From a virus (Duplodnaviria; Caudoviricetes), in the IMG/VR virus record IMGVR_UViG_3300032234_000260, positions 1 to 47,519 of that record: a DNA stretch of 47,519 nt, one strand, 5' to 3'. Below the pieces are notes generated by a model. That model saw nothing but the letters and a program-made list of their open reading frames with translations. It had not been told where the DNA came from and did no database searches. How positions within the stretch are numbered: position 1 is the first letter of the stretch; each line of letters opens with the position of its first letter. The position numbers and the translations under genes were made by a program. This document shows, one piece after another, positions 8,319-46,467 of the stretch.

Positions 8319-9821
8319 TTAAGCAACCCGATGGGTTACTTTTTCTACTGACTTTGAATCTGTTTTTGTACCCGGTACTACTAGACCCGGTGTCTCCGAC
8401 GCTAGGAAGTAGTTGTACTTACCGAATACATTGACTAGGTCATAGAAGTCCATGACTTTGAAGAATGACTGCATTGTTGCGCCACGCTTTGCTGTCTCAA
8501 TTAGACCACGAACTACCCACGCGAAGAATGTAATTTTATCTGCATTGTAGTTGCAATCCATTTGACGGAACTCTATCGTACCACGATCGTTTAATAGATG
8601 CGATACGTTTACAGCCCTAGGCTTCTCTGCTTTGAGTTTTGGATCCTTTTTGCTCAAAGCAAATCTGATGTGTTCTATCGACACCCTGCGTGCATACTGC
8701 ACATCATTGCGTCCACATAGAACTGAGAAGAGACCTTCTAGTCTCTTGTATGTTGCCATGACTGTACCGACTTGCATAGTCGTTAAGTCTCCGGCCCATA
8801 CGTGAATGTGTGTACCTGCAGTGTCATTCATCTCTGCACCCTCGTCTAATAGCTTCTGGCACAAGTCATACATACCATTATGCTTTACACGTTGGATACC
8901 GCCTGTTGAACGATACTCTGCTGACTCAGCATCTGTGCATTCGCCGCTACCACAGTGATCTGGGCTGTCGTTGTAGTCGCTACAATTATCACAGTTGCAT
9001 TCGTGATAAGTACAATCGCTACAATAACATTCACAGTCTTCACTACCTTCGTATGAACGCAGTGAACCGTCATCACCTTTGTCGATTCCTGAGAACGGCA
9101 ATGGCTCTACACCTTTGCAGTCTGGAGATTCTATCTCGAATCCCCATGTGCGCGATGCTAGACCGTTTGACGGAAGTTGATTGCTTAGAGTTTTGATTTG
9201 CTCCTCTATGCGAAGCGTGAACTCTCTACCGCCTGATGGACCTTCGGTAAGGATTTTGTTTAGACCTGACCCTTGCTCTGTTTCATTCTTGACGATATTG
9301 ACACGCGCTTGCACAATCTCAACCCATCTTTGCAGACTGAATTTAGCATTTTTGAGTTCATCAATGCTTGGTCTGACTTCTGCGAACTTTCTCAGAACAA
9401 ACATAGCTGCAGTTTCTCTTGTATCATCATAGCCATATGAGCTAACGCCTCTAGCCCACATAACATGCTGATTAGAACCTGCACCTGCTGGTCTTGTCTC
9501 TGTGTCGTTTGCATATGCATTCAGCATTCCCTTCCAATAGATTAGCCTCAATCTATTTTGCGGGTTGGTTAGAAACTCTAACCCTCCAAATGATGTTTCA
9601 CCATATTCCCAATTACCATATGTTTGGTCGAGTAGCGGACCTTCGATGATGAATGTATCTGAGATTGCTACCGGGAAATCTGGAAAGAACTCATCCTTGA
9701 TTTCCTTTATTACTGTGTAAGGCATACGTTCGTAACCCATATCTGGTACGAATACCCTACGTTCGTCTATCTTTTGATAGAACTCTAGTGCTTGTTCTCT
9801 TAATTCAGAGTATGTTTGCAT
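8319..9821 (-). CDS. Putative amidoligase (COOH-NH2 ligase type 2, glutamine synthetase-like fold)
   Basis: Motifs TWGFEIE, DDGSL, EYRS, AGTHIHV and GTIEFRQ occur in the expected order. Confidence 0.85.
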   Translation of the reverse strand: MQTYSELREQALEFYQKIDERRVFVPDMGYERMPYTVIKEIKDEFFPDFPVAISDTFIIEGPLLDQTYGNWEYGETSFGGLEFLTNPQNRLRLIYWKGMLNAYANDTETRPAGAGSNQHVMWARGVSSYGYDDTRETAAMFVLRKFAEVRPSIDELKNAKFSLQRWVEIVQARVNIVKNETEQGSGLNKILTEGPSGGREFTLRIEEQIKTLSNQLPSNGLASRTWGFEIESPDCKGVEPLPFSGIDKGDDGSLRSYEGSEDCECYCSDCTYHECNCDNCSDYNDSPDHCGSGECTDAESAEYRSTGGIQRVKHNGMYDLCQKLLDEGAEMNDTAGTHIHVWAGDLTTMQVGTVMATYKRLEGLFSVLCGRNDVQYARRVSIEHIRFALSKKDPKLKAEKPRAVNVSHLLNDRGTIEFRQMDCNYNADKITFFAWVVRGLIETAKRGATMQSFFKVMDFYDLVNVFGKYNYFLASETPGLVVPGTKTDSKSVEKVTHRVA

Positions 9822-10365: not shown

Positions 10366-11454
10366 ATGTGTGGAATTGCTGGATTTAGTTTATCAAAAAA
10401 TTCTAGAATAAACCCTAGAAAGTTATCAAATGCATTGCTTTGTGGCATCGAGAGTCGTGGTAATCAAGCGGCTGGTTATGCTTGGCAAAATGGTGTGTCT
10501 TCAGGTATGTATAAGAGTAATGTTCGTGGTTCTAGTTTATCCCTAAAGGGTATGCCTAGAGATGCTGACACTGTTATCTTGCATACTCGCTATGCTACGC
10601 ATGGCTCCGTAAATGTTATGGCAAATAATCACCCTGTTGTTTCGCCTGACAAGAATATTGCTTTAGTGCACAATGGCGTTATTTATAATCACAAGCGTGT
10701 TCGTGCTGAGTTGCCTTATACTTTGCCAGAGGTCGATACTAGTGTTATTCCTGCTATTCTGCAAAAGTATGGCGTTGAGCGTTTAGATATGCTTGATGGC
10801 GATGCGTCTATTGCGTGGCTTGATGAGCGTGAGAATGGCACTTTGCGTGTCGGTCGTTTCTCTCATTCTCCTTTGTTTGTTGCACAGACAGAGGATGGCA
10901 GTCTTGTGTTTGCGTCGACAGAGAAAATCTTGCTCGAGGCTCTAAAGCGTGTTCGTCTCAGTGCCGTATATTTGCAACAGGTTGCCGAGAAAGCCCTTTA
11001 TACAGTCCGTCAGGGTCGTATTGACGCATCTGAGACTATGCCTGAGACTAGCCCGGAGTTCGAGGAGAAGTTGTCTTATTCTGCTTATGGCAAGTATCGT
11101 GGTATGACTGCTGGTGGCAAACTCAATAACTCTTCTGTTGTTGGTTATGGTTATGCTGATGGTTTAGATTACTCATCTGATCTTTATGAGGAATTAGATA
11201 GTGAAGAGTTCGAGGACTTTTTGACTAACTATTATGAGACTGATGGTTTCTTCTACGACTATTCTGGAACATTCTTGGGAGATATCGAGTCGATGCGTGA
11301 CATCTTCGAGGATTACCGATACAACGAGTATTGGATGGGCAAGGATGCTAACTATAATCCTTGGACTTTCACCGAAGGTACTGCCAAGAATTACGAGGCT
11401 CCACGCAGGTCTTCTCCTCGCGATTGGTATTGGAATGACAGTGAGATTTTTTAG
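10366..11454 (+). CDS. Class II (Ntn) glutamine amidotransferase
   Basis: N-terminal MCGIAG nucleophile, RG..AAG, LHTRYATHG, NNHP, HNGVIYN and VDTSVI, with an acidic Tyr-rich tail. Confidence 0.92.
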   Translation: MCGIAGFSLSKNSRINPRKLSNALLCGIESRGNQAAGYAWQNGVSSGMYKSNVRGSSLSLKGMPRDADTVILHTRYATHGSVNVMANNHPVVSPDKNIALVHNGVIYNHKRVRAELPYTLPEVDTSVIPAILQKYGVERLDMLDGDASIAWLDERENGTLRVGRFSHSPLFVAQTEDGSLVFASTEKILLEALKRVRLSAVYLQQVAEKALYTVRQGRIDASETMPETSPEFEEKLSYSAYGKYRGMTAGGKLNNSSVVGYGYADGLDYSSDLYEELDSEEFEDFLTNYYETDGFFYDYSGTFLGDIESMRDIFEDYRYNEYWMGKDANYNPWTFTEGTAKNYEAPRRSSPRDWYWNDSEIF

Positions 11455-18250: not shown

Positions 18251-18664
18251 ATGGCTAGACCAAAGGGTATAACCCCAGTAAAAGAAAAGATAAAGCCGAT
18301 AAGGGGCGAAAGCCACACTGCGCTTTTTACATACATTCACACAGGCATAAAGTCTGAGGCTGTTCAGCCGATGATTGCATTGCATGACGCTATGGATAAA
18401 GCCATTGAATCAAAAGAGTATTGGCCTTGCCTAAACAACCCATACTTCTACACAGAATACGATAGTCTGGGTTTTGAAGATGAGGAGGGCAGGGCTCTAT
18501 ACAGACCAATAACAGTAGACCAAGCGGAGATGCTGTGCCATGGATGCCCACTGCTAAAGCAGTGCTATGATTTTGCAGTTGCAAATGAAGAGCGATACGG
18601 CATCTGGGGTGGCATTGACTTCTCAGCAGATTACGACGAACTATTCCCGGAGGACATGGAATGA
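18251..18664 (+). CDS. whiB: WhiB-family transcription factor
   Basis: C...A..LCHGCPLLKQC..FA..N.ERYGIWGG. Confidence 0.9.
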   Translation: MARPKGITPVKEKIKPIRGESHTALFTYIHTGIKSEAVQPMIALHDAMDKAIESKEYWPCLNNPYFYTEYDSLGFEDEEGRALYRPITVDQAEMLCHGCPLLKQCYDFAVANEERYGIWGGIDFSADYDELFPEDME

Positions 18665-19383
18665 TTACAGATAACAGAATTAGAGAAATGGCTCTAGGCT
18701 TGTTCAAGCAAGAGAGCGAACGCGACAAGCAAAAGAAAGTCGGAGCATCTGACTTCTCTGATCCTTGTGAATACCACTTAGCCAAAAAGCTTATGGGGCA
18801 TCCACAGGAAGAGTTCAAGTATTATCTTGGTGCAAAGATTGGAACTGCGACGCATGAGTTCCTAGAAAAGCGCATTGAGACAGTTGACCTTGATGAGTAT
18901 CCGGAGTTTGCTAACGCAGTTATCGAGGAAACTATCTTCCTTGGCGAACTCGAGGGTTACGGCACAATCAAGTCTAAGCCTGACCTTGTGCTAGTAGACG
19001 GCAAGCATTTAGTCGACTGGAAGACCTCTAAGCGTGATAAGTCTAGGCAACTGCAAGATGTTGTCCATGGCCTCGCTAAGGACACCAAGGTGGCAAAGGA
19101 GGCCGCTTATAGCCTCAAGAAGTACTATGCTCAGGCACAGATTTATGCTTGGGGATTGAACAACTCTGGCACCGAGATCGATGGTTGTTCACTTGTGTTT
19201 ATCAACCGCGATGGAACTTATGACCCTGATGTGTGGACTTGGACATTTGCTTACGACGAGGAATTTGCTCTAAGCATGTGGTCTAGGCTAGAACGCATCT
19301 GGTCTGAGTTGCAGTCCGGAAAAGAAATCGAATCGTTCGAGCGCGAGCCAGAATGTTTCAACTGTAAAGTGTTTGAGGCCTAG
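18661..19383 (+). CDS. Cas4-like PD-(D/E)XK exonuclease
   Basis: GASD...C, GTATHE, PD...LVDWKT, QxxxY and C-terminal CFNC. Confidence 0.85.
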   Translation: MITDNRIREMALGLFKQESERDKQKKVGASDFSDPCEYHLAKKLMGHPQEEFKYYLGAKIGTATHEFLEKRIETVDLDEYPEFANAVIEETIFLGELEGYGTIKSKPDLVLVDGKHLVDWKTSKRDKSRQLQDVVHGLAKDTKVAKEAAYSLKKYYAQAQIYAWGLNNSGTEIDGCSLVFINRDGTYDPDVWTWTFAYDEEFALSMWSRLERIWSELQSGKEIESFEREPECFNCKVFEA

Positions 19384-19386
19384 GAG

Positions 19387-19617
19387 GTGAATATGGATAA
19401 AAGAATAATTTTTATTACGAGTGGGTGGATTGTGTTTGCAATGCGTTTCGGATTTGCCGGTGTTATGGTATGGGCAAGTACTGATGTCACGAATCAAGCA
19501 CTGCAGTTCACCTTGATAGGTCTTGCTGCAATTTTCTTTGGAAATGCAATCAGCCAGATAATCAAGATGTACGACTTCCTGAAAAAGGTCGACACGCTGA
19601 ATTTGACAATTGACTAG
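19387..19617 (+). CDS. Small membrane protein
   Basis: Two hydrophobic segments, AGGAGG SD (start may be the internal ATG). Confidence 0.6.
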   Translation: MNMDKRIIFITSGWIVFAMRFGFAGVMVWASTDVTNQALQFTLIGLAAIFFGNAISQIIKMYDFLKKVDTLNLTID

Positions 19618-19630
19618 AATATGGTATACT
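19603..19630 (+). promoter_or_regulatory. Promoter for the recombination/replication genes
   Basis: TTGACA-16 nt-TATACT with TGG before the -10. Confidence 0.7.
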
Positions 19631-19650
19631 GAATTCCCTAAGGAGGAAAT

Positions 19651-20379
19651 ATGACAAACTTTCCAGCATTGCCTTTCGAAAAGGCAATCAAAAAGGCCTC
19701 GGCCCTAAACGCACCAAAAACCATTCTTCTCTACGGAGACCCAAAGCGTGGTAAGTCATGGCTAGCGGCATCTGCCAGCGAACTAGCAGATCTCTCTCCA
19801 GTGCTCTTCATCGACACTGAGGGTGGCTCTTCTGCGATTGCTCGCGACTGGCCTGATGTGAATGTTGTGGATGGCGACACTCACGAAAAGCTAGACATCA
19901 TCATCAACTCGTTGCTATCTCAGGAACACCAGTACAAGACTGTCATTATCGACACTCTTGGTGTTGCGATGGATAGAGCAGAAAAGTTCTTTGGTGACAA
20001 GCCTGAGAACCGCAACAACAAGTTTGGTAAGTGGGGCGACCTAAAGGAGTGGATTACGGATATGACCCGTAAACTACACTCTGCTCCATTCCTTTCAATT
20101 CTTGTAGCACACGCACAGGACGAGAAAGACGACCAAACCGGTGCTGTGAAGACAGTGCCAATGCTACCGGGTTCTGCAAAGAACACACTGCCTGCAATTC
20201 CAGACATCATCGGCTATATGACTGCCGAGGCTGATGGCAACGGAGGTATCAACCGCGTCCTATACATGCAATCGTCAGAGCGCTTAGTGTCGGGCAACCG
20301 CTTTGGACTACCTGCTAAAATGGTAGACCCAAGCATCAAAAAAATAATCACATCAATTCCACAAGGAGGAACCAAATAA
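19651..20379 (+). CDS. AAA_24 / Sak4-like ATPase
   Basis: LLYGDPKRGKS, FIDTEGG, TVIIDT, LVAH and DIIGYM. Confidence 0.85.
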   Translation: MTNFPALPFEKAIKKASALNAPKTILLYGDPKRGKSWLAASASELADLSPVLFIDTEGGSSAIARDWPDVNVVDGDTHEKLDIIINSLLSQEHQYKTVIIDTLGVAMDRAEKFFGDKPENRNNKFGKWGDLKEWITDMTRKLHSAPFLSILVAHAQDEKDDQTGAVKTVPMLPGSAKNTLPAIPDIIGYMTAEADGNGGINRVLYMQSSERLVSGNRFGLPAKMVDPSIKKIITSIPQGGTK

Positions 20380-20852
20380 TGAGTAGTCTAAACTTCTCAG
20401 CTGACGCGTTTGAATCGTCAGGCTCATATTCACCAGTGCCAGCAGGCACTTACAACGCAACAATCTACGAGGTAAAGATTGTTCAGGTCAAGTCTGGCGA
20501 AAACGCTGGCAAGGATCAGTTCAATGTTCAGTTCCGCATCTCAGATGGGCAGTACGAGAACCGTCGCCTATTCACCTACATTCCTCTATACGCTGGTAAG
20601 GCGCAGTGGAAAGCTCTGGCATTCTTCAAGGCACTTGGCTACGAGCCAAAGCCAAACGAGCCATTCCAGATTCCAACTCCTGCAGACCTAGGTGGCAAGC
20701 CTATTGGTGTAAAGGTTACGGTTGTGCAAGACCAGAATGGTGGCGACGACAACAATGTCTCTGGCTTTTCCAGCCTAAAGGTTTCTGACGCAGTTCAGAA
20801 CCTGACATCAATCCTTGGTGCAACACCGACTAACAACTCTTCTATCTGGTAA
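20379..20852 (+). CDS. DUF669-like ssDNA-binding protein
   Basis: PVPAGTYNATI, G.YENRRLF and FFKALG, adjacent to the Sak4-like ATPase. Confidence 0.75.
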   Translation: MSSLNFSADAFESSGSYSPVPAGTYNATIYEVKIVQVKSGENAGKDQFNVQFRISDGQYENRRLFTYIPLYAGKAQWKALAFFKALGYEPKPNEPFQIPTPADLGGKPIGVKVTVVQDQNGGDDNNVSGFSSLKVSDAVQNLTSILGATPTNNSSIW

Positions 20853-25595: not shown

Positions 25596-26894
25596 ATGGG
25601 CAAATGTAAACTTTGCAACTTACTTCCAAATGCAGAGCTTGAGTTAATGCTTGCAACTAAGTCAAGTAGGCACATTGCAAGCAAGTTCGATGTTGGCAGG
25701 ACAACTGTCAATAAGCATCGCAATGAGTGCATGAAACCGAACGCGGATAAAGAGTTTTGGGAGGAACTTCAGAGCATTAACTGGAGTGGCAACACCGGAG
25801 TTTGGAACACTGGCAACATAGACACTGTGCTAGATAATGTGTCACACGACACTATCTTAGAAAAGTTTGGTCACGACCCTAAAAAGGTTGCAATCAAAGG
25901 CATACTCCGAGAGTCTCACAAAGAATACTGGAGTAGGGATCTAGAGAAGATGCTCTGGAAACACAGTTACTCTTTCTCTGTTGAGAGGCGCGTAGAGGGC
26001 CTTACAGATGAAATTGATGTAGTAGCCTTGCTAAATGCATTACCAAAGACCACAGCCACTTCTAAGCCCGGAAAGGGCGTTCCTAGCACATTTGTGCTGG
26101 ACTGGGCTGATTGGCAGATGGGTAAGAAAGAGGGCGGTGGAACCGAGGCTCTTATTGAGCGCCTAGAGTCTGCTTTTGCCTCAGCTATTGTGCGAATCGA
26201 AGAGCTAAGAGCCACAGGGCGCAGGCTGGAAGAGCTAGTCATTGTGGGTGGTGGCGACATGATTGAAGGTTGTGTAATCTATCCTCAGCAGGCTTTTGGA
26301 ATTGACCTAAACCGCAGAGAGCAAATTCGCAACACAGTTGCGGCAATCTTGCGTGGCTTAACTTTGCTAGCCCCACTATTTGAAACAGTAAGGGTTGTGG
26401 TTGTTCCGGGAAATCATGGCGAGCACCGCATTACTGGAAACCGCACAGAGATTGGCGACAACGACGACTTACTAGTATTTGAGATGGCTCAGGTCGGTTG
26501 TGCTAATGACCCTAGATTTAAGCATGTGTCATTTGAGATAGCCAGCAAGGAAATCTCAGTTGCCACAAATATTCGAGGATGGGTGTATGGAATTACCCAT
26601 GGAGATGTTTATGGTAGAGGGTCTGGCACAGGGGTTAGAAACAAGGTGTTTAACTGGTTTAAGACTATGGCTGCAAACCGCCACCCAGTAGGAGCATCAG
26701 ATGTGCTACTTACTCATCATTTTCACCACGACGCAATGGAAGATTGGGGCAACACACTATGGGTTCAGAATCCAACGATAGACGGAGGAAGCCACTATTT
26801 CAAAGAATATTCGGGACACGAAACACGTCCGGGTATGAACAGTTGGGTGGTTACCGAATCGGAAAGACTTCAAGACAAACAGATCCTGAGATAA
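25596..26894 (+). CDS. Calcineurin-like metallophosphoesterase with N-terminal HTH/Zn region
   Basis: ADWQ, GGDMIEG, PGNHGE, THGD and HHFHH. Confidence 0.85.
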   Translation: MGKCKLCNLLPNAELELMLATKSSRHIASKFDVGRTTVNKHRNECMKPNADKEFWEELQSINWSGNTGVWNTGNIDTVLDNVSHDTILEKFGHDPKKVAIKGILRESHKEYWSRDLEKMLWKHSYSFSVERRVEGLTDEIDVVALLNALPKTTATSKPGKGVPSTFVLDWADWQMGKKEGGGTEALIERLESAFASAIVRIEELRATGRRLEELVIVGGGDMIEGCVIYPQQAFGIDLNRREQIRNTVAAILRGLTLLAPLFETVRVVVVPGNHGEHRITGNRTEIGDNDDLLVFEMAQVGCANDPRFKHVSFEIASKEISVATNIRGWVYGITHGDVYGRGSGTGVRNKVFNWFKTMAANRHPVGASDVLLTHHFHHDAMEDWGNTLWVQNPTIDGGSHYFKEYSGHETRPGMNSWVVTESERLQDKQILR

Positions 26895-29652: not shown

Positions 29653-30288
29653 TTACTGTAGAACTGTTACGATTAGGTTGTCTCCAGATGTGCTTAGCAT
29701 CATCGAACCACCGGAAGCCGGGGTGGATGAGTATTGCATTGTTACGGAGATTTTGTAATCGCCTGCCGGGACGGAAATCAATTTAGTCATACCTATTGAA
29801 TCGTAATCATGTATAACATCGTTAATAGTAGTTACCTGCTTTAGCTTCCTCATTGGTTGTGAATCAACTAAAACACCATTTACGAAAATTCTCGAATCAA
29901 AACCATATGATGTTGCCTGTGTGTTTGTTGAGGTTGTCGATTCAACTCTGTAAAAAGTTGAATAGTTTATCAAAAGCTTTCTAGGCCTTCTTAGGCTGAT
30001 GTTTATGTCTAGGGCGCTAGTGTTTGAGTTAAAAGTATTGTTCACACCAGAGGTAAAAGTTACTCTTTGCTCTTGAGATGAATCGAGCTCGGTTGAGTAA
30101 GTTACCAGCTCTGATTTATCCAGCAATAAGCTAGATAAATTTTTTATGTTAGAGTTATTAGCCGCATCTTGACCTGCAATATTTGTGCGGCTAATCGCAG
30201 CACTTTGATTTAAATCTGCTAGCTGTTTTTCAACCTCTCTAGCCCATTGCTGAGAACCGGACGGTAGATTGTTATTAGGTAAAGGCAC
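29653..30288 (-). CDS. Minor tail protein
   Basis: In the tail-tip module. N-terminal helix followed by a beta-rich domain. Confidence 0.7.
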   Translation of the reverse strand: MPLPNNNLPSGSQQWAREVEKQLADLNQSAAISRTNIAGQDAANNSNIKNLSSLLLDKSELVTYSTELDSSQEQRVTFTSGVNNTFNSNTSALDINISLRRPRKLLINYSTFYRVESTTSTNTQATSYGFDSRIFVNGVLVDSQPMRKLKQVTTINDVIHDYDSIGMTKLISVPAGDYKISVTMQYSSTPASGGSMMLSTSGDNLIVTVLQ

Positions 30289-32740: not shown

Positions 32741-35700
32741 TAGTTTGTACCTCTCTGAGCTAATAGAACGTTTCCAGCGTTTGCGGATTGGGCAATCTTA
32801 GTGTTTTCAGTGTAAAGATTAACTGGTCTATCTAATGCTGAGCGAAGCAGCGCCCTATCCTCTGGAGACAAGTATACCATCTGGCTGTCGTTTCCAGAAT
32901 TGTTCAGACCAGCTCGAGTAGCAGACGGTGTGTATCCAACGCGCTGTTGGTTTAGCGAGTTCATGAAATCAAGTCCGCCATCTGTTCTTGTGCGCGACAG
33001 GATTCCGGTTCCCTGACTTACAGGCTTGACATCAATTACAATTGCACCTTTAATCTTGCTTAGGCTGCCATTTGCCTGAGCAACAAAGCTTCTAATAGCA
33101 TCCAAAGCTGGTTGATCTACAAGCTTTAGGGTTATGTCACGTGGCTTGTAGGTAACAATCGTAAGCATGTCATCGAATTTCTTTGCATACCTATCAAGTT
33201 CCTCTGCACTGAAACCAATTGCAGTAGCATTGTCCATAAACTCTTGCTTTAGGACAGCAATGCTCTTTTTAGCTTCAGTGGAGCTTTTTGATGTTGCTAG
33301 GATTTGCTCAATGTAAGGGTCGTAGTTTTGAAGCATACTAAGAATCTGTGAGCGGTTTTCAATTGCTGTAACGCTGTCACCGACAAGAGTCTTGTTTAGA
33401 GCTTTGTTCTGCTCGTTGATTTGTGCCTGAGCGTCAGCAATTTCATTATCCTTCTGAGCAATTTCTGCGCGAAGCTTATCTGCACGAACAGTGTCGCCGT
33501 AGCGTACAGCAACATCAAGCTGTGTTTGAAGGATGCCCCTGTCGGCAGACATTTGCTGTATGCTAACAAGTATGTCATCAATTGCTTTTCTAGCGTCATC
33601 GACACTCTTTCTCATGTCAAGCCACTGCTTGTTAATGTTGTCTAACGCTTGTGTGCGACCAAATCTGTTTTGGAACGCTTCACCAAATATGCCCGCTACT
33701 TCAGATGCCCATTGACGGGTTGTCTTAACTGTTCTTTCAAGACTTTCATTAGCACCATCTGCAGCTTCCGAAATTCCTAAGATACTATTAATAATGTCTT
33801 GGAATGCAGACTGACCAGTTGCAGCGCTTATTGCTGAACCAATACCCTTTAAAACAGCTCTAAATTTTTCCAATTGAGCTATTTGAGCGTCAACTCTTTT
33901 GCGTTCTCCGCTAGGCATAAGCGCCTTACCGTAAACTTCTGAACTAGTCGAAGTCTCGCTAAGTTCTTCTCTGAACAGCCTTGTGCTTTTTGTTTTTAAA
34001 TCACTAATCGCTTTGTCAACTCCGGCTAGTGGATTTTTAATTTTTGGGTTCATCATATTTTCTATAACTCCCCTAAAATCAATTCCTTGACTCTTAAGAT
34101 CTTTAATAATAGTTGGGTATTGATCAAACATTTCTTTTACTTTAGAGTTTGCAGCAAGAGAGTTTGCAATCCAAGCTTTGGCGTTTTCACCCAATGCCAT
34201 AGTCTGAGTTTTAACTTCGCTAGTCAAAGATGCTGTCTGGCTATTCATTTCAACTGTAGTACCAGTGGCTTCCTGAACGGCAGCAGCATTTTTATTTAAA
34301 GTTGCTGAATATTCATCATACTTAACTTTAACCAAACCAATGGCTTTACCGCTCTTGTTATACTCAACAGTATCTTTTGCAATTGCATCACGCAGTGAAG
34401 CTAAGCCACCACCAGATTCAAGTAGATCAATTTTGTTGGCCGCCTCAGCAGCTGCATTCATTGACACCACAATTCCAGTAATTGTAGTTGCAACAGTCAG
34501 GGCAATACCAGCCCAGCTAGCTATGCTCAAAAGTTTAGACCCAATACCACCAAGAACACCAGCAGCACCAACCGCACCAGCCCTAGTTTCAAGATCAATT
34601 GCTTTACTGTTTGCCATTCTGGCTGCAGCTTCTTCGTATTTTTGTTTAGTGATAACACCACTAGAAGCATAACCTCTAGCATTGAGAACCTCTTCTTGGG
34701 TTAAGGCTCTGATTTTTCCATCGATAGCAATAACATTTATTTGACGAGCTCTCGCTTCGTTCATAATTGCCGCGCCGTTTTCTGCGCTGATTGTGCCCGA
34801 CTGAACCTTTTTAGAAATCTCAGCATCAAGTGCGTTTATTTCAAGAGCGCGAGCACGAACAATTTGATTAATTGAATCAGCCTCCATACGAGCAAACATT
34901 AATTGCTCAGAAGCCGTTACATTACTTTCCTTGCGAACCGCAGTTAAAGTACCTTCAGAAACTGCAATAGCATCAATTTGCCTGCGAAGCTCTTGACCAG
35001 TGGCGCGATATATTTTGCTTTCTTTTTGAAGGTAAGATCCTCTATCTTCTTTTGTTGTAGTGATGCCATAGGCAATAGGTTGTATTTGTCCACGTGCCGC
35101 TGCATTAGGAGACTGCAGTTGATCACGCATTTCAATTAACTCTGTATTGTAGTTAAGTAGCGCGCGTATCTGTTTTCCAAAACCAGTCACTGCAGTAGGG
35201 TCATTTGCTGTGTTAACCATAGCAACCCTAAACGCATAAATTTGAGCTGTAATCTTTGTCATTACCGCAATAAAGCCAGCACCAACACCGCCAAAAGCAA
35301 CTATTCCTGTGGAAAGTGATGCAAGTGTTTGCATGATTTCATTTCCAGCAAGAACCTTAAGCCCGTTCATTAAATCAGTTAAAACACCAAGCACGCTCTT
35401 AAATGAACCTGCAAGGTTTTTTCCAACCTCGGCACCAAATGATTGCAAACTATTTTGAAAGAGTTTAATCTTTGCATCAACTGTTTCGGAGCTCTTAGCA
35501 AATGCTTGCTGCAAGAAGATGTTTGACTTAAAAGCTTTAGTAGCATCAGACATTGTGCTGTCTACTACATCCAAGTTTTTAGACAAACGAGTTAGAGTGT
35601 TAATCTCTCTAGTTTCAACAATATTTAGCTCATCAAATACCTTTGTTAGGTCTTTACCGGAATCGTTAATTCCCTGCAAGATTCCACGAATAAGCTCATA

Positions 35701-38700
35701 GGACTGACCTGCCTCGCCCCACTTAGCCCTAAACTCATCTGCACTAGTTCCAGCAATCTTTGCGAACTTAGCAAGATTCGGGCCACCCTCACCAACAGCT
35801 CGGTCAATCTTACCAAACAAACGGGTGAATACACCACGCGCTTGTTCAGCAGGCACACCGAGGGATGCAAGTGATGTTGAAAGACCAATAACTTCTGCAG
35901 GCAAAAGACCTACACGCTCAGAAACAGCCGCAATAGATTCTGCAAGTGACATAATCTGAGGTTCAGTAGCAACAGCGTTAACACCAGCATAAGCAATAGA
36001 TGCACCAAGGTTACTCATTTGATCTGATTCTAGCTTAGTAAGCTGGGCAATACGACCAAACTTTTCAGCAATAGTGTCTGCACTCATTCCAGTGATCGAT
36101 GCGAACTGAGAAACTGTTTCGGTAAACTTAACAATACCAGATGCGCCAATACCCATTTGAGCACCGAGTGTTGCAATACGAGAAAGCTCTTCTACTGTAA
36201 CAGGGATTCTTTCAGATAGTTTAATAAACTGCTCAAGCATTCCCTCAGTTTCATCGTTAAGCAATCCCATTGCACGCTCAACAGGCATGAATGCACTTTC
36301 GTATGAGCGATAAGCATCTGTAATGTTAAAAATTTGACGTGAAAGCATAAACATGCGGTTAGATACATTCTGGAAAGCGTTACCAACGTCATAGAGGGCG
36401 TAACGAGCTGTAACCCAAGTGTTAATCATGTTCTTGTTTGCAGACTCTACACGCTTCTCAGCGTCAACATATTCTTTCATCTGCGCTTTAATCTGATTAG
36501 AGAATACAGAACCTGCTTGCTGGTTGAATGGGTTTGCCATTTCAGTTCTACCAACTGGGAGGTTTGTCGCCTGTGAACCAGAGTAGCCTACAGTACTAAT
36601 TGCAACCGGAAGACTTGGCTGTCTGAGCATAGTTGACAATGTGGCATGCATCTTGTCAAGAGTCTTAGCCTCTTTAGCTCTTGCTGCGGCTTCTTGCTCA
36701 ACCTTGGCTACAGCTAGGGTGTAGTCGTCTACCAGTTCCCTGTTGATTTGATAAAGAGTCTTGGTGGAGGTTTTAGTTTCCGCCATTAATGTAGCTCTAA
36801 GAGCTAAGAATCTGTTGCCTCTCTCCAGCTCAGCTGTTTCTTTTTCTGTGCGAACAGATTGCTGAGAAAGTACGCCTACACGCTTTTCGGTTTGCACAGC
36901 AAGTGCGTCAACCATCTTTCTGATATCGGCATCGGCCTGCGCTGAATCAGCTGCAGTCCCAGATACTACAGCTTGAATTTGCTTATAAAGTCTTAGTACG
37001 TGCCCGAGTCTAGCCTCAGCGAGTGCAGCTTGTCCAGCTGGCGAAGCTTGCTGATCTGCCGCTCTAGTTTGCTCGACAAGAACCTGAGCCTCAAGACTTC
37101 TTTCTTGCATGTCAAAGCCGGCTTTACCACCTTTGCCCTTAGTCTTAGAAGGCTGTGCGTAAGGCATGGTTGAGGCGGAGTAAACGCTATTTGCAGGTAG
37201 CCAGCTATAGCCCGGAGTCTCCATAAGACTTCGGAACACTGGGCTGACTTGTCGCATAACTTCAGTAACAATAATCGAAGCGATTGCATCAGCTCGGGCT
37301 GTGTGAGCAGGGAGCTCCTTGCCATCAATCTTAATGGTGAATCCATTTTCACCAAACTTAACCATGTCAGCGTATGGGGCAGTTGCATCTTTAAAGTCTT
37401 CGAATAGTTTTTGAAGAAGCTTGCCTTGACCAAGATTACCCTTGTTTACATTAGCAAAGATAACACCCGGGTCTGTTACGTTTGCAGAACCCTGCATGGA
37501 TTGGAGAATCTTAGGGTTGTCAACAATGTTGCCTAAGCCACCAGTTAACCTTGCGTGAGAGCCTTGACTTGCTAAAAAGTCAACTGTATTTTGTAATTGT
37601 TTAAAGTCTGCGTTAAGCAGGTTGGAGCCAGTAAGCGGAATGCGTAACTGATCCAAAAGATTAATCAAAGCAAGAAGTGCTGAAATCTTTTTATCAAGCT
37701 CGGCTTTGTTTTGCTCCGCGTTTTTCAGATCTCCAAGTTGAGCTTCTGGTATTCCTAAAAGCCCTGCTCTTTCGTTAAACTTAGCCACGCTAGTAATCGC
37801 AGACTTAGAGCCTTCGCCTTGCACGAACATAGCCTGATTCATTCCAGCTACGCCCATGCCGCCTTCTGCTAAATAAGCAGGTCTGTGCATAAATGTCTGT
37901 AGGTCTAGATATTGGCCTAGCGCATTTTTAAGCACAAGGGATGATTCAAGAATTGTGCTCGCTTGGCCCTTGAGCTTATCTGTGAATTCAGTATCCCAAG
38001 CAGCAGTTATTTCACTTGCATTTTTCTTAAGGCTATCTGCAATAAAAACAAATACTTTATCGAAAACCTCTGCGCCCATAATGTTTTTAAGCTTTTGGAA
38101 TTCTGGGCTGTTATAAGCTCCACGCAACGCTTCAACTGCAGAGTTGGTTACATTTTCAACTACAGCTTGTCCAACTTCTTCAGATGCTGCTGCAGGTTTT
38201 GCTGTTGCGGTATTGTTGTTAACTATTGTTTTAGTCTGCTGCTCAATTTCTTTTTGCTGAGCTTTCATTTCTGCAAGAATTGCACGCAGAGCAGAAATTG
38301 GGACTTCACTGTCAGCCCACAGCGAGGTGCCCGCTCCCGGCATTACAGCAGGTCTTGACTGCGCTCCACCAGCAATGTTTGTTTGCCAAGCAGTGTTTAC
38401 TATGTTGTTATAGTCATTAGGTAGGAAAGCTTTTCCCATTGTGGCAAAGCCACCCTGTCTTAAGCCATACTTTTCTTCAAGTTGAGAAATCTTGCTAATA
38501 ATAGCTCTGTCAACATATTCCTGCATGTTGTCAAGTGCGCCAGTAGGGTCGCCAATCTGAAGCTCACCGTAGTTGCTCATCTGGTTGCTGATAACCTTTT
38601 CACCAGCAGCATAGGCTTGGTCACCTATAGATTTAAATATCTTAGTTATATAGTCGTCAAGCAGCTGGTTGAACATTGGCTCAAACTGATCGTTTGATAT

Positions 38701-39930
38701 GCCAGCTCCCATTTGCTGTTTGATCTGCTGGAATAGTTGATCTTTTTGATCTGGCTGATAAAATCCTGTATCCGTTGAGAATGGACTTATGCCACCACCC
38801 GGAGTTCTTGGGGTAGAGATAAGCATTGTCCCCATTGCTCGCTTTTGTTCTTCTGCCGCCTTAGCCGCAGCTTCTTCACGTCTTTTTTGTCTACGAGCAG
38901 CATTCTTGTCGTCTTTAGAATAGTCATAGTCTTGGAAAGTTTGATTTATGACATCGGATATTTGGTCGAAAGTAACGCCAAGTTCTTTTTCGATTTCTTT
39001 TTGAAGCGCTAGTCTTTCAGCTTCAGCAATCTCGGCTCTGCCACCTACGCCGGAAACCTTTGTCATTGCCTCTCTTACGGCAACTAGGAATGTTTGCGGG
39101 CTTATGATTGGGGTTCCACCCGGTCCAGCAGTAAAGTCTTGTAACGCCAGCTTCAGCTGGTCGGCAGATAGACCGGTTTCGCGCTTTGAGAGTCTACCTC
39201 CGTTTTGTAGCACAGAGATGATTTGGTCGTTTAGTTGGAAATCAGATGTTTGTCCTGTGTTAGCCATCGCATCAGACATGAATGTCTTACCAATAATGTC
39301 AGACATTTTCTTAGCTTCAGAGTTTAGCCACTCAGCCTGCGCCTTACGCATCTCATCTTGAAGCAGGTCTCCCCACGCACCAAGGTCTTCTTGGATACTG
39401 CCAGCAAAACCCGGTTCAAAAATATCTTGAAGACTAAGTTTTTTAAGTTCGTCTTCTGCAACTGTAAGACCGCCAACAATAAAGTCTTTAATCCCAGTAA
39501 AGCCCATGCCCTTTAGTGAGTCTAGAATTGCTTTACGGATTGCTGCCGCATCTTGACCAGAAGGCGCTAGTTGGTCGATTGGAAGGTATCTGTCTCCACC
39601 AGACTTGTTAGCTCTGACGCGCTTTTGCTCAGCCTCGTATCCAGTTGATCTAATTGGTGATAATGAGGGTGTGCCAGTCCTGACATCAATAGAAAATTTA
39701 TAGCCAGCTTTTGCGGCTCTTTCGAATGCATTACTAAAAGCAGTTTCTAAAGAGTCTTCAATACCCTTAAATGATGCTGGTCTTTTGCTACCAATTGAGC
39801 CGAACTTCTCGGAGATTAAGTCAACAGCTGTACCTAAACTAGCAATGTCGTCTTTGGCTTTTTTAATACTGTCGGCATCAATGCCAACAGATACATCAAT
39901 ATTGGCACTTAGGTTTTCGTCGTTAGCCAA
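32740..39930 (-). CDS. Tape measure protein (2396 aa) with putative embedded DEDDh nuclease domain
   Basis: Longest ORF, follows the tail chaperones, Ala-rich helical, TMP core (YESAF..VER, LGAQMGI) and hydrophobic segments. Confidence 0.92.
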   Translation of the reverse strand: MANDENLSANIDVSVGIDADSIKKAKDDIASLGTAVDLISEKFGSIGSKRPASFKGIEDSLETAFSNAFERAAKAGYKFSIDVRTGTPSLSPIRSTGYEAEQKRVRANKSGGDRYLPIDQLAPSGQDAAAIRKAILDSLKGMGFTGIKDFIVGGLTVAEDELKKLSLQDIFEPGFAGSIQEDLGAWGDLLQDEMRKAQAEWLNSEAKKMSDIIGKTFMSDAMANTGQTSDFQLNDQIISVLQNGGRLSKRETGLSADQLKLALQDFTAGPGGTPIISPQTFLVAVREAMTKVSGVGGRAEIAEAERLALQKEIEKELGVTFDQISDVINQTFQDYDYSKDDKNAARRQKRREEAAAKAAEEQKRAMGTMLISTPRTPGGGISPFSTDTGFYQPDQKDQLFQQIKQQMGAGISNDQFEPMFNQLLDDYITKIFKSIGDQAYAAGEKVISNQMSNYGELQIGDPTGALDNMQEYVDRAIISKISQLEEKYGLRQGGFATMGKAFLPNDYNNIVNTAWQTNIAGGAQSRPAVMPGAGTSLWADSEVPISALRAILAEMKAQQKEIEQQTKTIVNNNTATAKPAAASEEVGQAVVENVTNSAVEALRGAYNSPEFQKLKNIMGAEVFDKVFVFIADSLKKNASEITAAWDTEFTDKLKGQASTILESSLVLKNALGQYLDLQTFMHRPAYLAEGGMGVAGMNQAMFVQGEGSKSAITSVAKFNERAGLLGIPEAQLGDLKNAEQNKAELDKKISALLALINLLDQLRIPLTGSNLLNADFKQLQNTVDFLASQGSHARLTGGLGNIVDNPKILQSMQGSANVTDPGVIFANVNKGNLGQGKLLQKLFEDFKDATAPYADMVKFGENGFTIKIDGKELPAHTARADAIASIIVTEVMRQVSPVFRSLMETPGYSWLPANSVYSASTMPYAQPSKTKGKGGKAGFDMQERSLEAQVLVEQTRAADQQASPAGQAALAEARLGHVLRLYKQIQAVVSGTAADSAQADADIRKMVDALAVQTEKRVGVLSQQSVRTEKETAELERGNRFLALRATLMAETKTSTKTLYQINRELVDDYTLAVAKVEQEAAARAKEAKTLDKMHATLSTMLRQPSLPVAISTVGYSGSQATNLPVGRTEMANPFNQQAGSVFSNQIKAQMKEYVDAEKRVESANKNMINTWVTARYALYDVGNAFQNVSNRMFMLSRQIFNITDAYRSYESAFMPVERAMGLLNDETEGMLEQFIKLSERIPVTVEELSRIATLGAQMGIGASGIVKFTETVSQFASITGMSADTIAEKFGRIAQLTKLESDQMSNLGASIAYAGVNAVATEPQIMSLAESIAAVSERVGLLPAEVIGLSTSLASLGVPAEQARGVFTRLFGKIDRAVGEGGPNLAKFAKIAGTSADEFRAKWGEAGQSYELIRGILQGINDSGKDLTKVFDELNIVETREINTLTRLSKNLDVVDSTMSDATKAFKSNIFLQQAFAKSSETVDAKIKLFQNSLQSFGAEVGKNLAGSFKSVLGVLTDLMNGLKVLAGNEIMQTLASLSTGIVAFGGVGAGFIAVMTKITAQIYAFRVAMVNTANDPTAVTGFGKQIRALLNYNTELIEMRDQLQSPNAAARGQIQPIAYGITTTKEDRGSYLQKESKIYRATGQELRRQIDAIAVSEGTLTAVRKESNVTASEQLMFARMEADSINQIVRARALEINALDAEISKKVQSGTISAENGAAIMNEARARQINVIAIDGKIRALTQEEVLNARGYASSGVITKQKYEEAAARMANSKAIDLETRAGAVGAAGVLGGIGSKLLSIASWAGIALTVATTITGIVVSMNAAAEAANKIDLLESGGGLASLRDAIAKDTVEYNKSGKAIGLVKVKYDEYSATLNKNAAAVQEATGTTVEMNSQTASLTSEVKTQTMALGENAKAWIANSLAANSKVKEMFDQYPTIIKDLKSQGIDFRGVIENMMNPKIKNPLAGVDKAISDLKTKSTRLFREELSETSTSSEVYGKALMPSGERKRVDAQIAQLEKFRAVLKGIGSAISAATGQSAFQDIINSILGISEAADGANESLERTVKTTRQWASEVAGIFGEAFQNRFGRTQALDNINKQWLDMRKSVDDARKAIDDILVSIQQMSADRGILQTQLDVAVRYGDTVRADKLRAEIAQKDNEIADAQAQINEQNKALNKTLVGDSVTAIENRSQILSMLQNYDPYIEQILATSKSSTEAKKSIAVLKQEFMDNATAIGFSAEELDRYAKKFDDMLTIVTYKPRDITLKLVDQPALDAIRSFVAQANGSLSKIKGAIVIDVKPVSQGTGILSRTRTDGGLDFMNSLNQQRVGYTPSATRAGLNNSGNDSQMVYLSPEDRALLRSALDRPVNLYTENTKIAQSANAGNVLLAQRGTN

Positions 39931-39963: not shown

Positions 39964-40404
39964 TTATACAGCATCAATCTGCATAGATTCTTCAGCTAAA
40001 GCCTTATAATATGACATTCTAGATGGCATATCGCCCCCGTCATAAGTGTATGCTACCGCGTAGTCGGTTTCACCATACGTCTTAGTTTTTGACTTTCTTT
40101 TCTCTTGCTGTTCGTAGTGTTTTTCAAGCTCTGCTTTAGCAAAACATTTTGACGTTTTAATTTTAAAACCAACATTAGAAGCATTTTCATTTCTACATAT
40201 CCATATAGGATTACCACAATGGCCGCAGGTTTCATCTTTCAAAATCTGATACGCCTCTAAAAGAAGGAAGTCAAACTTTGTCCACACTTCGTTTGGTTGT
40301 TCGTGAAACAGCATTGCGCAGGGACGTATACCGTTTTCTATTGCAGCCCTAAGTCTTGTAACATAAACCCTGTTACTGTTCCAAGTTAGGACCTCTGTAA
40401 AAAA
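39964..40404 (-). CDS. Tail assembly chaperone, -1 frameshift extension (gpGT-like)
   Basis: The -1 frame is open from the slippery site T TTT TTA (40404-40398) through FTEVLTWNSNRVYVTRLRAAIENGIRPCA into the 39964..40314 ORF. Confidence 0.85.
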   Translation of the reverse strand, partial: FFTEVLTWNSNRVYVTRLRAAIENGIRPCAMLFHEQPNEVWTKFDFLLLEAYQILKDETCGHCGNPIWICRNENASNVGFKIKTSKCFAKAELEKHYEQQEKRKSKTKTYGETDYAVAYTYDGGDMPSRMSYYKALAEESMQIDAV

Positions 40405-40988
40405 CCTGCATCCGTAAGTTGCTCAAAGTAGCCACCGGCAAGAGTAAGTTTCTGCATAGCCTCAACAAGCTTTGCCCACTCGTTAGAAGGGATGTTCTTG
40501 CGAAGCTCTTCGATCTTGTCGTAGTCAAACTTAACTGAATCAACGTTGCCACTACCATCTGCAACTTGCTCAATGTTCTCTGCTACTAGCAATGTGACGT
40601 AATCTTTAAACCACGCAGGGTTGCCTAGTGGATCCTCGTCTTTGCCAATACCATGCTTCTTGTTGCAGTCTTCCAGCACACGTTCGATAGTTGCCTGACT
40701 TACTCCACGCATGGAGAACACCAAAGCAGATTGCTTGATCTTTTCTGAAAGCATTTGTGCCTCAGCCTCTAGCTTTTCAACTTCCTTAGCATCAAGACTT
40801 ACGTTAATCAGATCATTAATCTCGACTAGCCTAAGAGCAGTCTCATCATCTAGGTAAATTACAATATCTTTCTTAGGGTAAGCACGACCCTTGATAGCAT
40901 CCGCTAAACTAAAGACTTTAGTTGACTGAGCCTCCTCAACAAGCTTTAATGCTTCTTGAACCTCAGTTGGTTGTGTGTTTTCGCTCAT
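40386..40988 (-). CDS. Tail assembly chaperone (gpG-like)
   Basis: Between the tail tube and tape measure genes, ends at a slippery heptamer. Confidence 0.85.
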   Translation of the reverse strand: MSENTQPTEVQEALKLVEEAQSTKVFSLADAIKGRAYPKKDIVIYLDDETALRLVEINDLINVSLDAKEVEKLEAEAQMLSEKIKQSALVFSMRGVSQATIERVLEDCNKKHGIGKDEDPLGNPAWFKDYVTLLVAENIEQVADGSGNVDSVKFDYDKIEELRKNIPSNEWAKLVEAMQKLTLAGGYFEQLTDAGFLQRS

Positions 40989-44524: not shown

Positions 44525-44737
44525 CTATTGTACCTTACTTATAATTGCATTAATCTCATCGTGAGTTAATCCGAGTGCTTCTAGTTTTGCAAAAGCAGAT
44601 TGCCTATTCAGCTCTTCTTGAGTAGGCTCAGGATCTTCAATTTCGTAGTGCTCTACTACATTGTTAAGTGGGTGGTCATGGGTGCTGTCGCAATCTTCGC
44701 AAAAACCACCAATGCCATAAACGATAATCGTACTCAT
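44525..44737 (-). CDS. Small fibre-associated protein
   Basis: YGIGGFC..CD..HDHPLNN and SAFAKLEALGLT.DEI, coupled to the collagen gene. Confidence 0.6.
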   Translation of the reverse strand: MSTIIVYGIGGFCEDCDSTHDHPLNNVVEHYEIEDPEPTQEELNRQSAFAKLEALGLTHDEINAIISKVQ

Positions 44738-46467
44738 AGTTCTAAATACACCTCAATCGGTCCAGTAGCTCTGACAAAAGTTGTAACAGAGCTCGGTAGG
44801 TCACCAGATATGCCAGTAATTGCCAACCCAACATTGTTTGAAAACGCTGCCCCTGAAGGCCTTGGGACCTGTGGAACATGCGAAGTCGATAATTTAGATT
44901 GTGCAGTACAAGTCGCTACTTGATTAACTGCCGCAAGCCAATAAATACCCGGAGATAGTGTTTGGTTAATTGTAATAGAAGCAAACTGCGATGAAGTTGT
45001 AGTAGCGACAGTTCCTGCATCAAGAAGTAGTGTTGAAGGCACGCCATCAGTAGATTCATATATTCCTAAACGCATCCTACCGCCAGTGCTTGATGCGGTA
45101 GCAACCCAAATTCCAATCTTTGTAAAAGTAGCGGATACTGATGTAATAAAAGGAAGGAAAGTAACAACATTTAGGCTGTTTGTAGCGTTTGTTGATGCAC
45201 CACCCTGTGCAGAATAAGAAAACCCAGCTTTAAACCCCGTCCAACCAAAGCCAGCCTGTGGAGCAACAAATTCATACAGGCCAGATGTTGCGTTCCAAGA
45301 AAGAACATGCCCATCTTGCTTGCCAGCCATGGTAACGTCATGAATCTCTTTAAGTTCAAAACCATTTTGTGGCTTAACGAAAATCTCACCATTGTTAGCA
45401 TTTACTCTGGTTACTACACCGATAGAAACAAGATGGTCTGGAGCTGCTGGCTTATTTGCCAAGCCATAAATTAAGTTACCAGCTGTTCCTAGCCACACCG
45501 GATCACCAGCAACTGCCGAAGCTGTGTTCAAGCCTGAAAGCAAGCCTTCGGTAATCACCTTGACCTTAGCGTTAGTGGAGCCGCCCTGTTCAAGTAGTCC
45601 TAGGGTTTTTGAAGAAGTAGCCTCAGATGTGTTCGAGGCTTTAGAAACAATCATGTTCGTGCCATCAGCAGAACTTACATAAACTGCCTGCCCCTTAGCA
45701 ATAGCCTCACCAAGTTTAACTTCGTGCTTTAACTGAGAAGTCCAGTTAGCGTAGTTATCAATCCAAATAGTGTCATAATCAGCAGAAGTATCTTTTGCTA
45801 AGATTTGTCCAGCACTGCCTCCGGTAGGAATACCAGCACCAACCAAAGAAGCTAGCCACTCTTCTTCCGTTCCAGTAAAACCTTCAATCTGTGCAACCTG
45901 ATAAGCAGAAAAACCATTAGCACCCTGAGCGCCAGTCGCGCCAGTTGCACCAGTGTCACCTTTAACACCCTGAATTCCTTGAGGCCCAGTATCTCCGGTA
46001 TCACCTTTGATACCTTGTATGCCTTGTAAACCTGTGTCGCCCTTTTCGCCCTGAATACCCTGAATACCTTGGATACCCTGTATACCCTGCGATCCAGTAT
46101 CACCAGTATCGCCTTTAGCTCCTGTAGCACCAGTTAAACCAGTGTCACCCTTGGCCCCAGTATCACCTTTGATGCCCTGAATACCTTGAATACCCTGATC
46201 GCCTTTATCGCCCTTGATTCCCTGAATGCCCTGTTCACCTTGTTCGCCTTGAGGGCCAGTATCGCCTTGCGGACCCTCCGGACCTTGTGGGCCTGTTGGA
46301 CCTGCCGGACCAGCTGGACCCTGTGGCCCAGTACCACCTTCGCCAGTGCCAGAGTCGCCTCCACCACCATAAGGTCGTTTGTCGAGTTTTTTAATTTCAT
46401 TCTCAACCTTGTCAGTCCAATCTTGCGACTGAGGAGGGAGATTAGTATCCGGAAAATAGATTGCCAT
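44734..46467 (-). CDS. Collagen-like fibre protein
   Basis: Long uninterrupted Gly-X-Y run, SAYQVA..GF.GTEEEWLASL.G motif, GG.AGQILAK, and beta-rich C-terminal domains. Confidence 0.85.
   Translation of the reverse strand: MAIYFPDTNLPPQSQDWTDKVENEIKKLDKRPYGGGGDSGTGEGGTGPQGPAGPAGPTGPQGPEGPQGDTGPQGEQGEQGIQGIKGDKGDQGIQGIQGIKGDTGAKGDTGLTGATGAKGDTGDTGSQGIQGIQGIQGIQGEKGDTGLQGIQGIKGDTGDTGPQGIQGVKGDTGATGATGAQGANGFSAYQVAQIEGFTGTEEEWLASLVGAGIPTGGSAGQILAKDTSADYDTIWIDNYANWTSQLKHEVKLGEAIAKGQAVYVSSADGTNMIVSKASNTSEATSSKTLGLLEQGGSTNAKVKVITEGLLSGLNTASAVAGDPVWLGTAGNLIYGLANKPAAPDHLVSIGVVTRVNANNGEIFVKPQNGFELKEIHDVTMAGKQDGHVLSWNATSGLYEFVAPQAGFGWTGFKAGFSYSAQGGASTNATNSLNVVTFLPFITSVSATFTKIGIWVATASSTGGRMRLGIYESTDGVPSTLLLDAGTVATTTSSQFASITINQTLSPGIYWLAAVNQVATCTAQSKLSTSHVPQVPRPSGAAFSNNVGLAITGISGDLPSSVTTFVRATGPIEVYLEL
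45920..46330 (-). repeat. Gly-X-Y codon repeats (GIQ, GDT, GPQ)
   Basis: Imperfect 9-nt periodicity in the coding sequence. Confidence 0.9.

Follow-up and report, generated by a model that had tools for sequence, protein, structure and literature searches.

Tape measure proteins (TMPs) are usually seen as rulers and entry channels, and the enzymes known to be carried within them are wall hydrolases and one RNA polymerase. In the record of an uncultured phage analysed here (47,519 nucleotides, hereafter the window, comprising a complete 47.5-kb record), a DEDDh (DnaQ-like) 3'-5' exonuclease domain had been predicted from sequence inside the TMP. The locus thus raises the question of whether a tail protein carries such an enzyme and, if so, where and on which nucleic acid it would act. 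The answer is relevant to how linear phage genomes are dealt with just after infection begins, and to whether the tail lumen permits delivery of folded enzymes.

The tape measure gene and its genomic setting

The 2,396-residue ORF is a true TMP (Table 1). As is typical of siphophage TMPs, it is the longest tail gene, follows the major tail gene and two frameshifted tail-chaperone ORFs, matches PF10145 (E 3e-13) as well as PHROG TMP families, and contains hydrophobic segments, both of which lie C-terminal of the exonuclease domain. Read by eye, the TTG start of the gene is preceded at 5 nt by AGGAG, and the chaperone pair carries a slippery run, GGTTTTTT, at 40406-40399 with the -1 frame open.

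Table 1 Features of the tape measure locus in the window
Feature	TMP residues	Position	Strand	Basis
Tail assembly chaperone pair, directly upstream of TMP		39964-40988	minus	PHROG 20192/15960
TMP gene, 2,396 aa		32740-39930	minus	ORF, PF10145, PHROG TMP families
N-terminal TMP region	1-620	38071-39930	minus	Conserved start motif, then mainly helical
Predicted DEDDh 3'-5' exonuclease domain	~640-905	37216-38013	minus	Models, VIA, Foldseek
ExoI motif TAAWDTEFT (D646, E648)	642-650	37981-38007	minus	Sequence; first strand 641-649
E662 on second strand, extra invariant acid	662	37945-37947	minus	Conservation, 115/115
ExoII motif LTGSNLLNADFKQL (D775)	766-779	37594-37635	minus	Sequence; helix 771-788 after strand 4
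Strand 5 motif IVDNPKIL (D804)	802-809	37504-37527	minus	Sequence
ExoIII motif PAHTARADAIAS (H876, D881)	874-885	37276-37311	minus	Sequence
TMP core domain PF10145	1234-1425	35656-36231	minus	Pfam
Hydrophobic segment, possible membrane span	1536-1562	35245-35325	minus	Kyte-Doolittle peak 1.83
Hydrophobic segment, possible membrane span	1800-1829	34444-34533	minus	Kyte-Doolittle peak 1.69

The exonuclease domain is preceded by a conserved start motif at the TMP N-terminus and followed by a low-complexity Gly/Lys/Pro linker. Residues 1-620 contain one invariant Gly and no invariant catalytic-type residue in 112 sequences, and their pLDDT is patchy; a second enzyme in this segment, modelled within residues 1-920, is unsupported, that Gly being the sole invariant position. 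Two helical blocks of moderate conservation and moderate confidence (residues ~130-290 and ~410-520; 38131-39540, minus strand) carry family motifs without an invariant catalytic residue. Toward the other end of the protein, 110 of the 120 family TMPs listed match a Gly-rich C-terminal motif of ~30 residues that is absent from the window's TMP, which has the shortest spacing at this site (residues ~2310-2325; ~32950-33000, minus strand).

A WhiB-like gene points to an actinobacterial host. PMC6802176 describes such genes as a marker used for freshwater actinophages, and this single marker suggests a freshwater-type habitat. Two regions (18251-20852 and 25596-26894, both plus strand) encode the WhiB-like regulator, a PD-(D/E)XK-like exonuclease, a Sak4-like annealing protein, an SSB and a second exonuclease; no match to a DNA polymerase was found among the 64 ORFs or stretches scanned. 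The end repeat of the record falls inside the capsid gene and looks like an assembly overlap, and promoter and terminator counts are no higher than in shuffled sequences. Divergent amidoligase and glutamine amidotransferase genes (8319-9821, minus strand; 10366-11454, plus strand) mark a switch in transcription direction. A collagen-repeat fibre gene (44734-46467, minus strand) separates the capsid gene from the head-tail genes; its first 40 residues resemble, by eye, the start of a 211-aa tail ORF (29653-30288).

Sequence motifs and predicted fold of the exonuclease domain

The original prediction identified ExoI, ExoII, strand 5 and ExoIII motifs, in that order, together with all five DEDDh catalytic positions (D646, E648, D775, H876 and D881), and each is present in the TMP ORF where it was proposed to be. 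By itself, this pattern is only suggestive, since 47 of 1000 shuffles of the protein match a loose DxE..[DE]..HxxxxD pattern at the TMP spacing; conservation and the predicted fold place the domain beyond chance.

Profile and sequence searches do not recognize the domain. No exonuclease match was returned by Pfam, PHROGs, NCBIfam, the ESM Atlas or PDB sequences, and the domain is not filed under PF00929 (RNase_T) because it gives no match above the curated cut-off. Alignments to DnaQ with hhalign are not significant (probability 0.3 and 0.2%); in one of them, ExoI, the LGI/HGI stretch, strand 5 and ExoIII are in register and ExoII is out of register, and E662 is aligned with the DnaQ IIEIG stretch, again without significance. 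Weak PDB rows on the domain for CutC, PilN and the flagellar hook were judged to be chance, and a Tox-ART-HYD1 match on the domain of one relative (P0014; E 5e-4, below cut-off, 1 of 18 proteins) was rejected. Searches of 50,697 annotated phages and of plasmids with the domain gave no match, no related loci were found in viral_contigs, and a protein search limited to 502-2,000 aa matched one fragment.

An AlphaFold2 model of residues 618-912, built from 18 sequences (pLDDT 87.8, pTM 0.89), comprises three long strands, then a helix-strand-helix-strand succession and a last helix. VIA-align matches this model to E. coli epsilon (1j53) with Z 12.6 and an rmsd of 3.1 Å (166/174 residues). Epsilon, 3'hExo, ExoI and DinG score between Z 12.6 and 12.8, with TREX1 homologues and PARN tied, and the 50 matches listed are all DnaQ-fold chains judging by title, the longest alignments (204-224) being those to PARN/CAF1. 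Among solved structures, Foldseek ranks REXO2, RNase T, ExoI and Orn best, with E-values that are modest (7e-4 and above), and its viral matches are DnaQ-like proteins. A second model, covering residues 1-920 with 29 sequences, recovers the domain (block pLDDT mostly 78-96, one block 60) and the same structural matches.

DEDDh exonucleases place the ExoI acids on the first strand, ExoII after strand 4 and ExoIII at the last helix. In the model, the first strand bears D646 and E648, D775 belongs to the helix that follows strand 4, and H876 immediately precedes the last helix, which contains D881; we take these positions to fit this layout. The RNase H-like/DnaQ fold that the original prediction had put forward for checking is thus found in both models and in both structural searches, and fold and conservation together confirm, at the level of predicted structure, that residues ~640-905 constitute a DEDDh (DnaQ-fold) exonuclease domain. 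The top Z-scores lie within 1 of each other across DEDDh subfamilies (epsilon, RNase T, Orn, ExoI and CAF1/PARN); since no subfamily stands out, the structure makes no distinction between DNA and RNA as substrate.

Conservation across the TMP family

A search with the exonuclease region returned 18 proteins, including that of the window. Relatives were also chosen by TMP core residues 1150-1560, and not by the exonuclease domain, which gave 244 matches, 120 of them listed. A profile of the domain is present in 117 of these 120; the other three are N-truncated fragments that start 25-215 residues before the core, and a further two of those listed begin inside the domain, leaving 115 complete copies. 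The survey of related TMPs suggested with the original prediction therefore shows that a large TMP family carries the domain as a constant component, its members having 820-1,566 residues before the core. Presence of the domain in nearly all relatives chosen by their core fits a role in the core life cycle better than one in optional counter-defence.

Pairwise identity among the 115 copies has a median of 26% and a minimum of 14%. Six of 269 domain columns are invariant, namely D646, E648, E662, H876, A878 and D881, and the two remaining acidic motif positions vary between Asp and Glu (D in 66 and E in 49 copies at position 775; D in 108 and E in 7 at position 804). Most of the 27 further D/E/H positions in the domain have drifted, and the linker from domain to core has no invariant residue between 881 and 1172. 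Judged by this pattern, the domain looks catalytically intact, and metal-dependent 3'-5' exonuclease activity is very probable. One pair of domains gave dN 0.20 and dS 2.25, a weak indication because dS is saturated.

The domain appears to be tied to its TMP. An HMMER search of 1.84 billion cluster representatives matched 31 proteins, 26 of which were already in the TMP set; the five new ones are one full TMP, three apparent fragments whose alignments fall within family TMPs, and one chance repeat match. No stand-alone form of the domain was seen in this search, in which 30 of the 31 matches are family TMPs or pieces of them, and this absence suggests that being fused to the TMP is important. 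Between domain and core distances, the Spearman correlation is 0.54. The domain tree is longer than the core tree (39 vs 14), however, and of its 62 splits with strong support, 40 contradict a strongly supported split of the core, which suggests that the module has been exchanged within the family, with the proviso that FastTree gives liberal support values and that the domain alignment contains many gaps.

Some relatives carry further cargo. A YAcAr/SLOG domain is listed for 3 of the 120 (P0079, P0085 and P0095, at 761-877, directly upstream of the exonuclease, above the Pfam cut-off; 16 long members scanned), and 6 of the 120 have two copies of the Gly-rich C-terminal motif around 225-665 extra residues, three of them with HExxH. 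The TMP family is therefore a cargo platform. The cargo of the double-motif cassettes (P0002, P0004, P0007, P0008, P0009 and P0070) is variable, and by eye three cassettes contain a stretch resembling a degenerate ADP-ribosyltransferase fold, without Pfam support. Seven TMPs of 2,900-3,400 aa (P0021, P0024, P0051, P0058, P0067, P0069 and P0083) have long extra regions in which Pfam recognises almost nothing (one weak match, to a zinc peptidase, in P0058) and which may contain further cargo.

Proposed role at genome entry and alternative explanations

The explanation that we hold at slightly better than even is that, in this large family of freshwater-type actinophages, the TMP serves as an unfolded tape from which an active exonuclease refolds at the pore and processes nucleic-acid ends before expression, and that fusions of this kind arose more than once in tailed phages. 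In the mechanism proposed, the exonuclease domain would travel unfolded in the tail as part of the TMP and regain its fold once infection expels the protein. At the entry channel, it would then shorten the 3' ends of the arriving phage DNA, whereupon the trimmed repeated ends could anneal and the phage genome circularise. Unfolded delivery followed by trimming of the phage's own 3' ends is, as a whole, a tentative proposal that falls somewhat short of an even chance. Of its parts, packaging and delivery to the cytoplasmic side are probable, and the phage's own genome ends may account for about half of the remainder as the substrate. Absence of a significant DEDDh match in sequence profiles and the Glu found at ExoII in 49 of 115 copies weaken this explanation.

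The delivery step draws on structural work in other siphophages. Tail density and channel width are given as 2-4 nm in PMC11445458 and PMC12617516, too narrow for several folded 260-residue domains, so that the domain, if packaged, would have to be packaged unfolded and refold afterwards. In 80alpha, the N-termini of three TMP chains are described as pairing with the tail completion protein, which in turn retains the end of the DNA, and the TMP is proposed to exit together with the genome (10.1101/2024.12.10.627806); the conserved start motif upstream of the exonuclease domain supports, by comparison with these N-termini, an action on the phage's own ends. The JBD30 model (PMC11445458) leaves the C-terminal end of the TMP at the baseplate and expels the rest, and proximity labelling from ManZ in the inner membrane reaches the lambda TMP during injection (PMC13190303); taken together, these would be compatible with an N-terminus at the cytoplasmic face. 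Delivery is further supported by phage P23-45, where an RNA polymerase at the N-terminus of the TMP gp96 is reported to be active and virion-borne (PMC10770324). An N-terminal gpH segment of Ur-lambda is tentatively placed at the outer membrane in PMC12617516, and this placement, together with the two hydrophobic segments, allows the N-terminus on either side, weakening the proposal that the domain trims incoming genome ends.

Several features favour the phage's own genome ends as substrate. A few tethered copies suit a local target, and retention of the domain is universal. The nearest cultured terminases (45%) belong to Arthrobacter cluster AQ, phages for which PMC5513430 gives 1.5-kb terminal repeats; by base-pairing reasoning, resection in the 3'-5' direction at the two direct-repeat ends would leave exposed strands complementary to each other, and the genome encodes a Sak4-like annealing protein and SSBs. 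Against this, three cultured relatives of the core lack the domain, the two other exonuclease genes could resect the ends after expression, the domain is net acidic (net charge -2 in the window's TMP and a family median of -6, with no obvious basic DNA-binding bias), and an unchecked exonuclease acting on its own genome would need a brake.

The domain might instead be delivered at entry to act on host nucleic acid, such as defence-linked ssDNA or RNA, short oligonucleotide signals or stable RNAs. The longer domain tree reflects fast divergence outside the active site, which fits an arms race, and the conflicting splits fit module exchange, although both comparisons draw on liberal FastTree supports and a gappy domain alignment; the YAcAr/SLOG domains and C-terminal cassettes would then be further cargo on the same platform. 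The top Foldseek matches are RNA and oligonucleotide enzymes (REXO2, RNase T and Orn), and PARN/CAF1 give the longest alignments, but DNA and RNA enzymes are tied in structural Z. Only 3-6 TMP copies per virion are expected. Universal retention, as found here, is unusual for counter-defence genes. On balance, we regard a host substrate as unlikely, though it deserves more weight than the explanations that follow.

A less likely explanation still, which we judge rather improbable, is that the enzyme acts in the producing cell, either late or at head-tail joining, where it would trim the packaged DNA end, its N-terminal part being cleaved or lying outside the lumen. TMPs are described as often cleaved, a low-complexity linker follows the domain, and a domain that, in the model, folds on its own cannot fit a 2-4 nm lumen in its folded state. 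However, the start motif, which in 80alpha touches the tail completion protein, precedes the domain in the chain, the linker has no conserved cleavage motif (881-1172, no invariant residue), and a late enzyme needs no fusion, yet no free form was found among 1.84 billion proteins. Finally, loss of nuclease function from a genuine fold, with the domain binding metal or nucleic-acid ends (for example as a genome-end cap) or only adding tail length, would accord with the Asp/Glu variation at ExoII, the large insertions (spacings 129 and 101; family medians 120 and 107) and the lack of a profile match, but is highly improbable, given that the general-base His and all carboxylates are kept in 115 sequences at identities down to 14% and a spacer would not keep them.

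The 290-residue domain is amenable to expression and assay. A conserved, predicted exonuclease hidden from all profile libraries in more than 100 TMPs points to an undescribed enzymatic step at DNA entry.

Comparison with known systems

The predicted fold, the order of ExoI, ExoII and ExoIII and the catalytic residues are common to the domain and to epsilon (1j53), ExoI (1fxx), 3'hExo (1w0h) and DinG (9ii8), as well as to RNase T, Orn/REXO2 and PARN/CAF1. In contrast to these known DEDDh enzymes, to which it is 10-18% identical, below all profile cut-offs, the domain has two insertions of ~40 residues, often has Glu as its ExoII acid and resides inside a structural tail protein.

The closest cultured TMP cores are 30-37% identical to that of the window. 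Microbacterium phage Erenyeager, Clavibacter phage CMP1 and phage Pan2, cultured and of actinophage type, share the TMP core (34% identity, with the RYALYD motif) and gene order with the window, but the core of their TMPs starts after only 100-300 residues and the exonuclease domain is absent. Set beside these domain-less TMPs, the long extension of the family with its exonuclease looks like the result of a single gain at the family root.

80alpha gp44 and the polyvalent proteins (PMC5512222) are further examples of enzymes or end-binding proteins that enter with the DNA and assist in establishing infection; unlike the window's TMP domain, they are separate head-borne proteins. Injected conflict enzymes are discussed in PMC7824862 and PMC5512222, and an exonuclease in a TMP is not; the terms 'tape measure' and 'DEDD' are absent from the main text of PMC5512222, and in PMC6070908 and PMC7326821 the terms occur in unrelated genes. 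Within the literature searched, largely the main text of papers outside subscription journals, no account of a TMP exonuclease was found.

The closest precedent is the P23-45 TMP, which was missed when the original prediction described known TMP cargo as mainly peptidoglycan hydrolase. According to PMC10770324, gp96 is likewise a very long siphophage TMP whose N-terminal part contains a nucleic-acid enzyme, this enzyme escaped sequence search, and action at the entry pore has been proposed for it. A remnant of such a polymerase in the present family is rejected, as the P23-45-type DxDGD polymerase motif (D[FYLA]DGD) occurs in 0 of the 120 family TMPs listed. The two proteins differ in cargo, which is an RNA polymerase in P23-45 and a DEDDh exonuclease, predicted from sequence and model, in the window's TMP.
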